DNA of 64,000 bases from assembly GCA_963727895.1 (NCBI GenBank), contig CAVSHT010000004.1, positions 96,001-160,000 on the forward strand, read 5' to 3'. Positions within the stretch are counted from its first letter, which is position 1, and each line of letters opens with the position of its first letter. This stretch comes from an uncultured Methanosarcinaceae archaeon (GTDB taxonomy: Archaea > Halobacteriota > Methanosarcinia > Methanosarcinales > Methanosarcinaceae). The translations under genes were made by a program, and so were the position numbers. The notes under the pieces are model-generated. The model worked only from the letters and a program-made list of their open reading frames with translations. It was not told the DNA's origin and ran no database searches. Shown in pieces: positions 14,597 through 59,370 of this stretch.

Positions 14597-14731
14597 GGCA
14601 GTGTACCAAAAGTTTTGTAAGTGCGACAAGAAGTTATGTCATAAATTGCCTTGTGCTACTCTTTCCATTTAGAGTAACCCTATTATGAGGTGCATCAGCA
14701 GTAATGCAGTTGTGCTAAGCTCATAAGGCAA
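14597..14731 (+). mobile_element. IS256-like terminal repeat followed by the 5' ~110 nt of a group II intron (relic)
   Basis: GGCAGTGTACCAAAAGTTTTGTAA|GTGCGACAAG..., near-identical to the reverse complement of ~58360-58491. Confidence 0.85.
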
Positions 14732-14880
14732 GGTTGTGGTGCAAAAATAATATTTCCGCAGTTTGATACTATAATTCTTACCTTTTGTACCATTTTCCTG
14801 GTGATGAGATTGATTAACATTCTTAATTGTGAAGGCTTTCAGTGATTTTATAAAATGGTCTGATTTTTTGCAACGGAACC
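14732..14880. mobile_element. IS6-derived MITE (~150 bp)
   Basis: Degenerate GGTTGTGGTGCAAAAA ... TTTTTGCAACGGAACC; right half similar to 48057..48206. Confidence 0.7.
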
Positions 14881-15070
14881 CTCCTCTTTCTGCCATCATT
14901 TCCTTTAAATTTCGATAACTTAATGGATATTTTAAGTACCATCTAACATTCAATAAGATAATTTCACCTACAAAGTGCTTCCATTTAAAGGAATTAGATA
15001 GCATGTCACTACCTTTGATTTCATTTTTATTTTAATTATATCCTTAGCAGATATTTTTTGCAACGGAACC
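14881..15070 (-). mobile_element. IS6 left end plus transposase N-terminal fragment
   Basis: FKWKHF.GEIILLNVRWYLKYPLSYRNLKEMMAERG; terminal repeat at 15055-15070. Confidence 0.85.
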
Positions 15071-39567: not shown

Positions 39568-39857
39568 TGTTAATGAAAAATAGGTGATTCATCTTTAATC
39601 AGTTAATGTTCATGTCCACAGACCTCCTGCAGTAACACTCAATGAAACTCCTGAGGAATTCCATATTTCCATTGGACTTCGATAGTTAAATGATGAATGC
39701 TCACGTAAATTGTATCTATTTTTCGCAATCACAAGAAAGTTCTGAAAATCATTAAAAGTTGCATCATTTAGCCTCTTGACTATAGATGTTGATTTGTGTT
39801 TACAAATATGTCCGAAGATTTAAATCAAATTTACTGCAAGAGGTCTGTGGACATGAC

Positions 39858-40034
39858 CCCTAGCAGATGACCAAAACTAGACTTTCAGGTTTCTCCACAT
39901 TGTCTTATGAGCTTAGCACAACTGCATTACTGCTGATGTACCTCATAATAGGATTACTCTAAATGGAAAGAGTAGCACAAGGCAATTTATGACATAACTT
40001 CTTGTCGCACTTACAGAACTTTTGGTACATTATC
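39858..40034 (-). mobile_element. IS256-like terminal repeat followed by the 5' ~150 nt of a group II intron (relic)
   Basis: Minus strand GATAATGTACCAAAAGTTCTGTAA|GTGCGACAAG...; matches ~58315-58491. Confidence 0.85.
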
Positions 40035-56042: not shown

Positions 56043-56341
56043 TGAATTTCTCCCCAAAATTAAATTATAATTATATAGTTAAATATATTTTCTATATTAG
56101 GTACTGTAAACTGTTTGGAATTTTGTAATCATTTAACTTATTTGCGAATGATTATTAACAAATGATCAAAAAAGATACGAACCGTTTGGTATTTGTTCGC
56201 ATATACTTTTCATGGATAATGGACTTGTTGGGCAGTGTCGCAAATTTGCTGTAAATTTGAAGTCAAGTTTTTGTGTATTAGGGGAAAATTGATCTTATGA
56301 TGTGGAATTTTCTACTCAATAACTTCTTGAGATTTGTGATT

Positions 56342-58467
56342 GTTGAATAAGAAAGAGCGATTGCTCGCTCTCCCTCTTCTAAGAACCGGACTTGAAAGTT
56401 TCCCTTCATCCGGCTCAAGTGTTCTATAACCCTTTCTGTATCAGGCAGCAGTTTTTTTTCAAACGGATTGACTTTTCCTTGAACTTAATTTATTATGACG
56501 TTCATGGAAGTAGTCGATATCAAGAAATGGATTCATTTGCAGTTTTAAAGGAATGTGTCTATGGATTTTAGTTTTGGATAAAAGCAACAAACTGTTTCTT
56601 TCTGTTCTGAAGTTCCATTTTCGTGTAGCACTTTGCTTCCAATATTTGTTGATAATCCAATTTTTGGATTTGTTTGGATGTCTTCTTTTAGCCCATCTCC
56701 ATAACATTTCCCACATTCGATGGTCAAGTGTCTGGAATGTTTCAGAAGAGACCACTGAATTATGATAGTTAGTCCAACCTCTAATTATTGGATTTAGTTT
56801 GGAAATTAAGTTATCTTGGGACCATGCTATCCCTTTTCTTAAGGTTTGACTAATTGTTTCAGTGAATCTTTTAATGGACTTCTTGGAAGGCTTGGTCAGT
56901 AGCTTGCCTTTGTACTCGCGAAAATTCCAGCCCAGAAAGTCGAAGCCTTCATAATATTTGTGATAAGAGTTTTATCATCAGACAGTTCAAGACCTCTTTC
57001 TTTAAGAAAAACAGCAATCTTATCTTTGATTTCTCTGGCAGTTTCTTCTGAATTAGCAGTTACTATGAAATCATCGCAGTACCTGATGAAGTTAATCTTG
57101 GTTGAATTCTTTTTTTTTAGGGTATTCATCCAAAAGTAACTTCTCAAGACCGTCCAATGTCATATTAGCCAAGATAGGGGAGATCATTCCGCCTTGTGGT
57201 GTGCCTGCTTTTGTTGGATTTGTGTGACGTTTGTAAATAAATCCTGCTTTGAGAAATTGAATTAATACTGATTTTTCCATTGGAATATTGGCCAGTAACC
57301 ACTGATGATTAATGTTATCGAAACACCCTTTAATATCGCCTTCTAAAATCCATTGCGCTGAATTTTTCTTGCTTAGACATAGAAAGATTTGCTCACAAGC
57401 ATCCTTAGTACTTCGGTGTTTTCTAAAGCCAAAGGACCTTATATCAGACAAGGTTTCAGCTATGGGGTCAAGAGCTAATGCGTATAAAGACTGCACAGCT
57501 CTATCATACATTGTAGGGATACCTAAAGGACGTCTCTTCTTTTTACCAGGTTTATTAATGAAAACTCTTTTGAGGGGTTTAGCTTTGTATCTTTTATCAG
57601 TAAGAATAAGAACAGCTTTCATCCTAGAGTCGGGTGTTAGCCATTTCTCACCATCGATTCCAGATGTCCTTTTTCCTTTATTTTGAATGACTCTTCTTAC
57701 TGCCAATAGTTTGGCAGAATAGAAATGTGTCAGTAAATATTGTAATCTCTTAATAAGGTTCCATTTGTTTTGTAAAACTGCTTTTGTAATTCGGGTTTGC
57801 AACTTATTAACGCTTTTCTCTACTTTATGCCAGTTGATACTTTTCTATTTCTGGGAGAGATAAGCGTCTGTAAGCTTCTTATCCTGAAGGGATATCGTTG
57901 AAATACTTACATTCAGAAGTTTGCCTCCTTTCATACAATAGAACACCATCAGTAAGTCTGCATCCTTTCGGATCAAGGCAAAGTTTGAACCTCTATCCAA
58001 TTCATTACAAATTGACATTCGCTTTTTACTGAATCCTATACCCTCTATGCAATTAATTCCCTTCACAGAGTTTCTACCCTTTTTTTTTAATTAAAAGGAG
58101 CATATAGGGCTTACCAAGTTTTATGTCACAAATAATGTAAATGTTTTAGAAGCCATCTATAGACCGGAAAGTGTATGTCCATTTTCTGCGACGTCTGTAA
58201 CACCATCGCACCCTGCTTTCATACCGTTTGGTTCAAGCGTATCAGTCTAGTTTCGCTTGTCATGAGTCACGACCCGTACAATGATTCAACATATGTTTCT
58301 TCATAGCATTTTTACCCTAGCAGATGACCCAAGTTAGACTTTCAGGCTTTTCCACATTGTCTTACGAGCTTAGTACAACTGCATTACTGCTGATGCACCT
58401 CATAATAGGATTACTCTAAATGGAAAGAGTAGCACAAGGCAATTTATGACATAACATCTTGTCGCAC
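56342..58467 (-). ncRNA. Group II intron, full length
   Basis: 5' GTGCG; domain V GAGCCGGATGAAGGGAAACTTTCAAGTCCGGTTC (56383-56416); 3' ...TTCAAC; EBS1 hairpin ~58187-58210. Confidence 0.9.
56459..57933 (-). pseudogene. Group II intron reverse transcriptase/maturase, no endonuclease domain; TAG at 57845 and two frameshifts
   Basis: RPLGIPT..DR, GDIKGCFDNI, GTPQGG.ISP.LAN, RYCDDF, FDFLG, domain X GWTNY. Confidence 0.9.
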
Positions 58468-58554
58468 TTACAGAACTTATGTTACACTGTCACTTGTTGC
58501 CTCTGATGGAACAAAGGTTCTCACAATTGCAGAATACAATCAATTTATTAATTT

Positions 58555-59294
58555 GATATTGATAACCAAAAATAGTTATCTTTTATTAGAAAGTATATTT
58601 CTGCATGAATTGCCCCAGATGCAATAGTTCTAATCACAAAAAGAATGGTATAGTTGGTGGTCATCAACACTATAAATGTCATGATTGTGGCTATAACTAT
58701 ACAGTAGAGCTAAAATCAACTGCTTTTTCCACTTCTGTCAAAAAACAGGCTTTACAACTCTATCTTGAAGGATTAGGCTTTCGCTCAATAGGAAGAATTT
58801 CAGGGGTGAGTCATGTTTCTGTCCAAAGATGGATAAAGAAATTTGGTCAGGAGTTAGAGGCCCTAAAAAGTGAAAATGAGATATCTATTGTTGAAATGGA
58901 TGAGATGCATACTTACATAGGTAACAAAAAAAATATTGTTGGATCTGGATTGCTGTTGATAGATTTGGGAAAAAGTTCATCAACTGCTCTTTTGGTAACA
59001 GAGGAACAGAAACTGGAAAACTACTCTGGGAAAAATTGAAGAAAAAAGAGATTGGAGAAGTGATGACAGATTACTGGAGGGCATATGCAGAGTTTATTCC
59101 TGAAACGATTCATACTCAATCAAAAGCAGAAACATTTACAGTTGAGGGATATAACAGCATATTGAGGCATTTTCTGGCAAGATTGAGAAGAAAAACAAAG
59201 TGTTATACGAAGAGTCTTGAAATGCTAAAGTACTCGGTTATTATATTGATGAAATACAGAAATAAAGAACTAGATATAGTTAAGTAACAATGCC
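58555..59294 (+). mobile_element. IS1-family element (InsA 58605..59039; InsB in the -1 frame at an A8 run)
   Basis: CPRC...CHDC; A8 at 58926-58933; AACAATGCC end. Confidence 0.9.
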
Positions 59295-59370
59295 AAATTA
59301 TAATGTGAAAATATAATGTAAAAACGTTTCTTGATCTGTGAACTTAAATCGTTACTTGAGGGTGAAATTA

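Follow-up and report, generated by a model that had tools for sequence, protein, structure and literature searches.

Introduction

IStrons consist of a group I intron fused to an insertion sequence (IS) of the IS200/605 type. They have been mentioned in the literature (PMC4853749), and in bacteria group II introns often reside in other mobile DNA (PMC4424553). According to the passages cited here, the inverted repeats of ISRm17 serve as homing site for RmInt2 of Sinorhizobium meliloti, for which there is experimental support (PMC4615759; PMC5894124), and RmInt1 homes into ISRm2011-2, a member of the IS630 family (PMC5894124). The nested group II introns of Methanosarcina acetivorans home into other introns (Dai and Zimmerly 2003, as reviewed in PMC4424553), and the introns of class C (IIC) insert at DNA motifs, terminators and attC sites, without a homing site of 20-35 bp (PMC4424553). 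Here we describe a group II intron located at the inner edge of a terminal repeat of a miniature inverted-repeat transposable element (MITE) of the IS256 family, in a stretch of 64,000 nt (hereafter the window) from an uncultured Methanosarcinaceae archaeon (GenBank assembly GCA_963727895.1, contig CAVSHT010000004.1, positions 96,001 to 160,000). For homing into IS inverted repeats, RmInt2/ISRm17 is a bacterial precedent, to which the present case would add an archaeal example. Our literature search returned no paper in which a group II intron occupies an IS256 repeat, a MITE or archaeal IS repeats, and an earlier description for Methanosarcina introns is possible.

Results

Organization of the locus

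The window is a stretch of contig C4, and all coordinates are window positions unless a contig is named; C4, C5, C11 and C14 are contigs of the same genome, a draft of 19 contigs and 3.67 Mb that is 84% complete and from which repeats may be missing. Other genomes of the genus are given as G numbers. The features of the composite, in which the MITE is interrupted by the intron with its reverse transcriptase (RT) open reading frame (ORF), are the following:

56223-56230, no strand: left copy of the target-site duplication ACTTGTTG (read from the sequence; homologous empty sites in G060 and G040)
56231-56254, plus strand: right-end terminal inverted repeat of the MITE, GGCAGTGTCGCAAATTTGCTGTAA, outer to inner (17/24 against the left end; end shared by other MITE copies)
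56231-56341, minus strand: 3' exon of 111 nt, made up of the body of the 135-bp MITE and its right end (BLAST, alignment)
56342-58467, minus strand: group II intron of 2,126 nt, GTGCG...AAC, whose domain IV contains a decayed RT/maturase ORF (Rfam, Pfam, second copy)
56342-56418, minus strand: ribozyme domains V and VI, with the AGC triad, a GAAA loop and a bulged A 7 nt from the 3' end (RF00029; hairpins read directly)
56951-56953, minus strand: site of a 1-nt deletion, the second frameshift (AATATT-ATG against AATATTAATG in five other copies)
57110-57118, minus strand: A9 run within the RT ORF, short of the frame by 2 nt (against the intact G001 and G014 copies)
57845-57847, minus strand: premature TAG in the RT ORF (TGG in the five other copies compared)
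58195-58200, minus strand: exon-binding site 1 (EBS1), UUACAG, intron nt 268-273 (hairpin loop; covariation with intron-binding site 1, IBS1)
58287-58431, minus strand: part of ribozyme domain I (group-II-D1D4-7; RF02012)
58330-58335, minus strand: putative EBS2, AACUUG, intron nt 133-138 (pairs with repeat nt 13-18, UAAGUU)
58468-58491, minus strand: 5' exon, consisting of the whole left terminal inverted repeat of 24 nt, GACAGTGTAACATAAGTTCTGTAA (same sequence in the C5 composite and the empty copy C5:181882-181905)
58492-58499, no strand: right copy of the target-site duplication ACTTGTTG (read from the sequence; empty sites)

On the minus strand the locus reads CAACAAGT, GACAGTGTAACATAAGTTCTGTAA, the intron (GTGCGAC...TTCAAC), the remaining 111 nt of the MITE (AATCAC...TTACAGCAAATTTGCGACACTGCC) and again CAACAAGT. 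The whole composite (56231-58491) measures 2,261 bp, the MITE without the intron 135 bp and the intron 2,126 nt. The intron limits proposed in the initial annotation, from 58467 down to 56342 directly after nt 24 of the repeat, agreed with both the sequence and Rfam, and the 17/24 match of the ends, the remainder of about 135 bp, the 2.26-kb unit and the 8-bp flanking repeat that it had reported were all found as described. The 8 bp ACTTGTTG directly abut both ends of the composite (56223-56230 and 58492-58499). When the left and right 24-mers of the MITE were compared position by position, the binomial chance of 17 matches out of 24 for one pair at this base composition was 9.4e-6. Chance similarity of the two ends was rejected, given that the MITE belongs to a family of elements, that copies of it have target duplications and that empty sites exist (see below). 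Taken as a whole, the composite is best read as a nested pair of selfish elements, not as a new kind of element.

The MITE and its IS256 relatives

BLAST of the intron-less element against its own genome returned a full intron-less copy of 135 nt at C5:181771-181905 (96.3% identity) and further copies. Ten two-ended elements of this genome were aligned, eight of this MITE family (135-137 bp) and two of a sister subfamily; their flanking duplications matched at 8/8 positions in four cases, at 7/8 in one and at 6/8 in one, and were unrecognizable in the remaining four. The element is short, non-coding and multi-copy, as a MITE should be, and matches to the MITE segment alone were found in many genomes of the genus. 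An 8-bp duplication has been reported for ISCth4 and IS256 (PMC7780238, in the passages cited).

A fuzzy search of the genome gave 43 end-like 24-mers, two of which (GGCAGTGTAGCGAGTTTTCTGTAA and GGTAGTGTAACGAAATTTCTGTAA) bound a 1,372-bp element at C14:28023-29394 whose Transposase_mut ORF has decayed through an insertion, a frameshift and a TAG codon. A second IS256-type copy, at C5:~109140-109950, is internally deleted and its transposase is truncated (C5:109215). Apart from these two degraded copies, no intact autonomous IS256-type element or transposase was found in the 84%-complete assembly. The congeneric genome G010 has a full-length element with an intact transposase of 375 aa, which scored 357 bits against NF033543 (IS256; cut-off 150) and 365 bits against PF00872. 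This element terminates in ...TTACAGAAAAATTGGCACACTGCC, the same form as the MITE ends, and its right end in reverse complement is GGCAGTGTGCCAATTTTTCTGTAA. The autonomous IS256 element with the same ends that the initial annotation had suggested looking for is thus present in G010, with only degraded copies in the genome of origin, and the description of the carrier as an IS256-like MITE was upheld by the form of the ends, which is common to the MITE, the G010 element (NF033543, PF00872) and the degraded IS256-type copies. On these grounds the carrier is a real MITE of the IS256 family, for which mobilization in trans by a transposase is predicted.

The intron and the decay of its RT

The results of our Rfam searches showed that RF02012 (D1-D4) matches 58287-58431 with 60.6 bits (threshold 34), over model positions 1-151 of 151, and that RF00029 (D5/D6) matches 56342-56418 with 60.3 bits (threshold 40), over positions 1-77 of 77, the latter match terminating exactly at 56342, the base of the 3' splice site. 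The boundaries have the GUGYG and AY form of group II introns, with GTGCG at 58467-58463 and TTCAAC ending at 56342. Pieces of the ORF matched the Pfam families RVT_N (5.6e-24), RVT_1 (2.6e-25) and GIIM (7.3e-28), and the intact protein of a relative (G001) contains RVT_N, RVT_1 and GIIM and scored 345 bits against TIGR04416 (cut-off 300). The Pfam and NCBIfam output for the intron-encoded RT contained no match to an endonuclease domain. A second full copy of the intron, 95.2% identical, is located at C5:394183-396315.

An alignment of six copies showed that the RT ORF of the window intron is disrupted three times, by a TGG to TAG change at 57847-57845, by a frame error in the A-run at 57110-57118 and by a 1-nt deletion near 56952; the RT that the initial annotation had considered dead therefore carries three lesions. 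The A-run lies in a linker of the RT and varies from 9 to 12 nt. It was in frame in two of the six copies (G001 and G014), which are the ones with an intact RT and which lack a pure A-run, and out of frame in the four others, which come from three genomes: by -2, by -2 (with +1 elsewhere), by +1 in G010 (L002) and by -1 in G009 (L004). The C5 intron has the same net A-run length (-2) as the window intron, and its A-run is interrupted. Such frame errors could be real decay, homopolymer sequencing error or a tract rescued by transcriptional slippage. Because the A-run is hypervariable and prone to slippage, the shared -2 length is weak evidence of common descent after inactivation.

The window copy is most simply interpreted as a fossil whose RT was lost through the nonsense codon and the two frame errors, and it is presumably immobile at present. 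In the 84%-complete assembly, tblastn found no other close RT able to act in trans, the sole other RT-like match being at C11:158567-159451, 28% identical to the RT of the intron. An intron remnant in another context is found at C14:42025-42165, where 141 nt of the intron 3' end (92% identity) are followed by a sequence that is neither a MITE nor an IS256 end. Near-identical introns with other flanks are found in the public runs X1 and X2. A less decayed relative with another flank is present in a contig of run X1, which extends over 56364-58491 and contains a near-identical intron (7 letters differing in 1,550) with TGG instead of TAG at 57846, the base near 56951 present and an A-run longer by one; a different sequence adjoins its left repeat.

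Target duplications and empty sites

In G060, the sequences that flank the composite are contiguous around a single ACTTGTTA (L066, 1501-1618), with an identity of 86% over 58 nt on the left and of 94% over 66 nt on the right, and a further empty copy with a single 8-mer is found in G040. The interpretation of the 8-bp repeat as a target duplication, made in the initial annotation, was borne out by these homologous sites. A second composite, at C5:394159-396426, is flanked on both sides by a different duplication, GCGGTTCT; a paralogue of its flanks at C4:~267057 is contiguous around one GCGGTTCT, with 93% identity over 301 nt and 80% over 389 nt.

The window composite is itself inserted in a copy of another short repeat family (...CATGGATAATGGACTTGTTNCCTCTGATGGAACAAAGGTTCTCACA...), which occupies 56140-56230 and 58492-58560 and of which there are several 70-80% copies in this genome, as well as copies in L066 of G060 (1468-1620) and L074 of G040. 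The locus is at least three mobile layers deep. Since the target belongs to a repeat family, the empty sites are homologous but not provably orthologous, and the expectation of an empty site in relatives held only to that extent. An orthologous empty site was also sought by synteny, but the gene of the left flank was found at 80-82% in only 3 of 58 other genomes (4 loci), and the matches end about 200 nt before the insertion.

Comparison of the two composites

Between the window and C5 composites, 104 of 2,133 aligned columns (4.9%) are different in the introns and 13 of 137 (9.5%) in the MITEs (Fisher p = 0.026). The rise in divergence is abrupt and takes place at the 3' splice site, with 8 differences in the last 300 columns of the intron against 12 in the first 60 columns of the exon (Fisher p = 7e-6). 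The nearest relative of the window MITE is the intron-less copy C5:181771-181905 (5/137) and not the MITE of the other composite (13), which is a mosaic of two subfamilies. The uniform divergence over the whole unit that would be expected of a composite (IStron-like) transposon is therefore not seen. The intron and the MITE have separate histories.

The terminal repeat as a putative homing site

We then searched 59 genomes of the genus, the relatives being represented by one genome per species, with the 5' junction of the intron. Among the 23 intron 5' junctions examined, the 24-nt repeat precedes the intron in 10: those of the C5 copy and of G017, G010, G031, G061, G014, G049, G056, G053 and G005, with the reservation that the G010 contig begins inside the repeat and that the G056 junction is shifted by 1 nt. 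The 13 others do not follow the repeat and belong mostly to more distant introns. Beyond these 23, three further repeat/intron junctions are found in the window, that of the composite itself and two in which only the 5' part of the intron is left:

14597-14734, plus strand: repeat-like 24-mer GGCAGTGTACCAAAAGTTTTGTAA, then a 114-nt 5' fragment of the same intron (Rfam match 14657-14741)
39858-40034, minus strand: repeat-like 24-mer GATAATGTACCAAAAGTTCTGTAA, then a 153-nt 5' fragment of the same intron (Rfam match 39826-39974)

The same intron (91-92% identical) is also held by the IS256 element of G010, where it follows ...AAAGTTCTGTAA in the orientation of the transposase and precedes AATATGATTGACTC..., with the start of the transposase 58 nt further. 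Near the repeat/intron junctions of seven further loci (L042-L049), at most of which the intron is truncated, neither a transposase nor a right repeat was found.

EBS1 (UUACAG) is complementary at 6/6 positions to the last six nucleotides of the repeat, CUGUAA, and the putative EBS2 (AACUUG) forms five Watson-Crick pairs and one G-U pair with UAAGUU (repeat nt 13-18); the EBS2 assignment is less well supported than that of EBS1. At four other targets, EBS1 and IBS1 covary (TTACCG/CGGTAA in G057, TTATGG/CCATGA in G001, CGATAT/ATATCG in G068 and GGCATG/CATGCC in G044). Since EBS1 changes in step with the 5' exon at other sites, the choice of the site would be made by RNA pairing, as in retrohoming. 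Judging from these junctions and pairings, introns of this lineage habitually home to the 24-nt repeat of IS256-type elements across the genus.

Only the left-type repeat was found to be occupied in this genome, and the right repeat is a poor match to EBS2; in G061 the intron follows a right-like repeat, GGCAGTGTAGCGAATTTGCTGTAA. Variants of the intron with an intact RT and a matching EBS1 are found in another target (...CATAGGTTTTACCATGA/AACCTATG) at L003 (G001), L017 (G057) and L099 (G042). That target lies inside another repeat, which ends 49 nt further in the same kind of terminal repeat, and the 5' exon of the G001 copy is 89% identical to positions 1300-1459 of L099. The repeat-sited intron of G031 (L042, C1:5105000-5113800; 80% identical) is interrupted by about 5 kb that contain further intron-like segments.

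Proposed order of events

The explanation that we favour, and that we hold to be very probable, is that the MITE was present first and that the intron retrohomed into it later, in two independent events for the two composites. A 135-bp non-autonomous derivative of an IS256 element, the MITE, would have entered its site, a copy of another repeat, and duplicated ACTTGTTG. Later, the top strand of the MITE would have received a group II intron by reverse splicing, immediately after nt 24 of the left repeat, and the inserted intron would have been copied into DNA by its RT (retrohoming). The EBS2 and EBS1 loops of the lineage pair with the inner 12 nt of the repeat (TAAGTT-CTGTAA), a homing site that could be used wherever the repeat occurs, be it in a full-length IS256-type element or in a MITE that had inherited it. 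The window copy would later have lost its RT and become a fossil. The precise position of the intron at the inner edge of the MITE repeat follows from the landing of the lineage at that repeat. That the MITE preceded the intron, that the mechanism was RNA-based and that the copy is now immobile are all inferred from the sequence. Of the two routes considered in the initial annotation, homing of the intron into a resident MITE is the one favoured by these data.

Several observations weigh against this order of events. Apparently good targets are unoccupied in this genome, for instance at C5:181882-181905 and C5:183575. The two introns each lack 2 nt at the same A-run, and no other close RT was found in the 84%-complete assembly, so that, if the A-run lesion is ancestral, the second homing event needs an RT acting in trans, or slippage. 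Both composites have perfect duplications, as expected of fresh DNA insertions, and the mosaic structure of the C5 MITE means that recombination among MITE copies could blur the history. Neither splicing nor retrohoming was seen in the public runs. Contigs that join 56341 to 58468 and skip the 2,126 nt between them were considered as candidate evidence of splicing (three in run X2, questionably labelled as DNA, and one in X13, an RNA library); their outer flanks differ from those of the window, they are other intron-less copies of the MITE, and they are evidence neither way. The public-run data are metagenome contigs, which cannot show RNA ends, splicing or rare forms.

Alternative explanations

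When the intron is at the inner edge of the repeat, the terminal site of the transposase is left intact, and carriers may therefore remain transposable. It could be proposed on this basis that intron-bearing IS256 elements and MITEs stay transposable, that an intron with a dead RT is spread by DNA transposition as an archaeal group II counterpart of the IStrons, and that a promoter formed at a 6-bp circle junction couples expression of the intron to transposition, a proposal that we regard as unlikely. In the full-length G010 element the intron comes after the repeat and ahead of the transposase gene, in the sense orientation. The proposal is also compatible with a 116-nt contig of X2, a public DNA run (depth 3.68), that contains the first 57 nt of the intron, the left repeat, six letters and the right repeat, and with the occurrence of similar 6-nt junctions across the genus. 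In the IS256 family, circle junctions with a 6-bp spacer were the most efficient in vitro (PMC7780238, in the passages cited). Using a pattern that allowed spacers of 4-9 nt, we found outer-to-outer ends abutted with a spacer of exactly 6 nt in 6 of the 59 genomes (L098-L103, in G004, G042, G043, G053, G068 and G070); three of these six junctions are one orthologous locus, and a reversed control pattern matched four genomes. This suggests that fixed tandem MITE dimers may lie behind the 6-nt junctions. It shows that the family, as far as its sequences tell, makes 6-bp junctions that persist in chromosomes; it does not imply that the composite is a substrate, as an intron can home after the junction is formed.

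The more specific possibility that the 2.26-kb unit of MITE and intron is a non-autonomous DNA transposon, moved by an IS256-type transposase through its intact outer repeats, with both composites carrying an intron that was already dead, is improbable. All 24 terminal nucleotides are contiguous with the end of the element when the intron is at the inner edge of the repeat, the two composites have different perfect 8-bp duplications, both introns share the net -2 at the A-run, and the assembly has no intact close RT. The geometry of the X2 contig, which corresponds to window positions 58411-58490 and 56231-56260, is that of an IS256-family circle junction or of a tandem dimer, and the junctions with a 6-nt spacer in other genomes are of the same kind. 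However, the X2 junction is a single short metagenome contig and could predate homing of the intron, and duplication by the MITE alone before the arrival of the intron explains the flanks equally well. The bodies of the two MITEs differ at 13/137 positions with a jump in divergence at the intron/exon boundary, the nearest relative of the window MITE has no intron (5/137), and the A-run is hypervariable, out of frame in 4/6 copies in three different ways. No intact IS256-type transposase was found in this assembly, and among the matches listed for the 59 genomes the junction between the intron 3' end and the MITE was present in no genome but this one, at two places, and G040, where it is a deleted remnant. 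Movement of the MITE and intron as one DNA transposon, the second route of the initial annotation, is thus disfavoured by the boundary divergence, the intron-less nearest MITE and the hypervariable A-run. The pattern that it had named as support for DNA-level transposition, several composites with the same RT lesions and different duplications, was found in part: two composites exist and share the A-run length of -2, but the A-run is weak evidence and the MITEs diverge.

It is highly improbable that the intron spread among MITE copies by homologous recombination or gene conversion through the MITE flanks, free of any RT, since, although the MITE copies are numerous and similar, the mosaic C5 MITE shows that they do recombine and the RTs are dead, the 5' side offers only 24 nt of homology, conversion would also have converted the flanking exon, whose 60 nt beside the intron are the most divergent, and the EBS1/IBS1 covariation at other targets indicates that the lineage picks its sites by RNA pairing.

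Other features of the window

An IS1-like element is located at about 58550-59300, 50 nt from the composite, with two ORFs in two frames, a helix-turn-helix ORF at 58605-59039 and a DDE_Tnp_IS1 ORF at 59036-59287; nine further matches of 92-94% identity are present in this genome. A repeat of about 188 bp has more than 70 copies of 90-99% identity genome-wide, for example at 14883-15070 (C4:110883-111070), and one copy lies just downstream of the truncated intron fragment at 14597-14734.

Discussion

The locus illustrates how selfish DNA is stacked in a methanogen genome rich in repeats, in three layers: an intron within a MITE, and the MITE within a repeat. Our comparison of genomes points to an archaeal group II lineage that, in many species of one genus, habitually homes to the terminal repeat of IS256-family elements. 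The strategy, for which the experimental evidence to date comes from RmInt2/ISRm17 in a bacterium, would thereby extend to the Archaea. In practical terms the gain is modest: the finding accounts for introns located in non-coding multi-copy DNA, and annotators gain a rule for spotting split ends of MITEs and ISs. With its occupied and empty targets and its intact and dead RTs, this is also a natural system in which to ask whether an intron at the edge of a repeat blocks or tolerates transposition.

Among the described systems, RmInt2 offers a close parallel in several respects, with intron copies in the terminal inverted repeats of an IS and the repeat supplying the IBS (Martinez-Rodriguez et al. 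2014, PMC4615759). All RmInt2 copies are described there in ISRm17 repeats, a multi-copy and harmless target that favours survival of the intron (PMC4615759). The present case differs in that it concerns an archaeon, the IS256 family and a transposase-free MITE as the carrier. RmInt2 uses both repeats, whereas only the left-type repeat is clearly used in this genome, and the mobility of RmInt2 was shown experimentally, while that of the present lineage is predicted from its sequences. As for RmInt1, the natural homing site is in an abundant IS (PMC5894124) and there is no endonuclease domain (for RmInt1, PMC4615759); its target is placed within ISRm2011-2, the terminal repeat not being specified in the passages cited (PMC5894124).

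Like the introns of M. acetivorans, the present lineage is archaeal and appears to home site-specifically into mobile DNA, without coding exons around it, and the nested arrangement in G031 resembles that reported for M. acetivorans. The reported pattern in that species is, however, homing into introns, and the terminal repeats of ISs or MITEs are not mentioned as targets in the cited passages of the review (PMC4424553). The IIC introns also target a recurrent DNA motif outside genes; unlike them, the intron described here clearly pairs, through EBS1 and EBS2, with one particular sequence of 12 nt. IStrons likewise associate a ribozyme and a DNA transposon in one unit and are the model for reading the locus as a composite transposon. 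They have a fused and recurrent architecture that transposes as one, whereas here the intron and the MITE have had separate histories.

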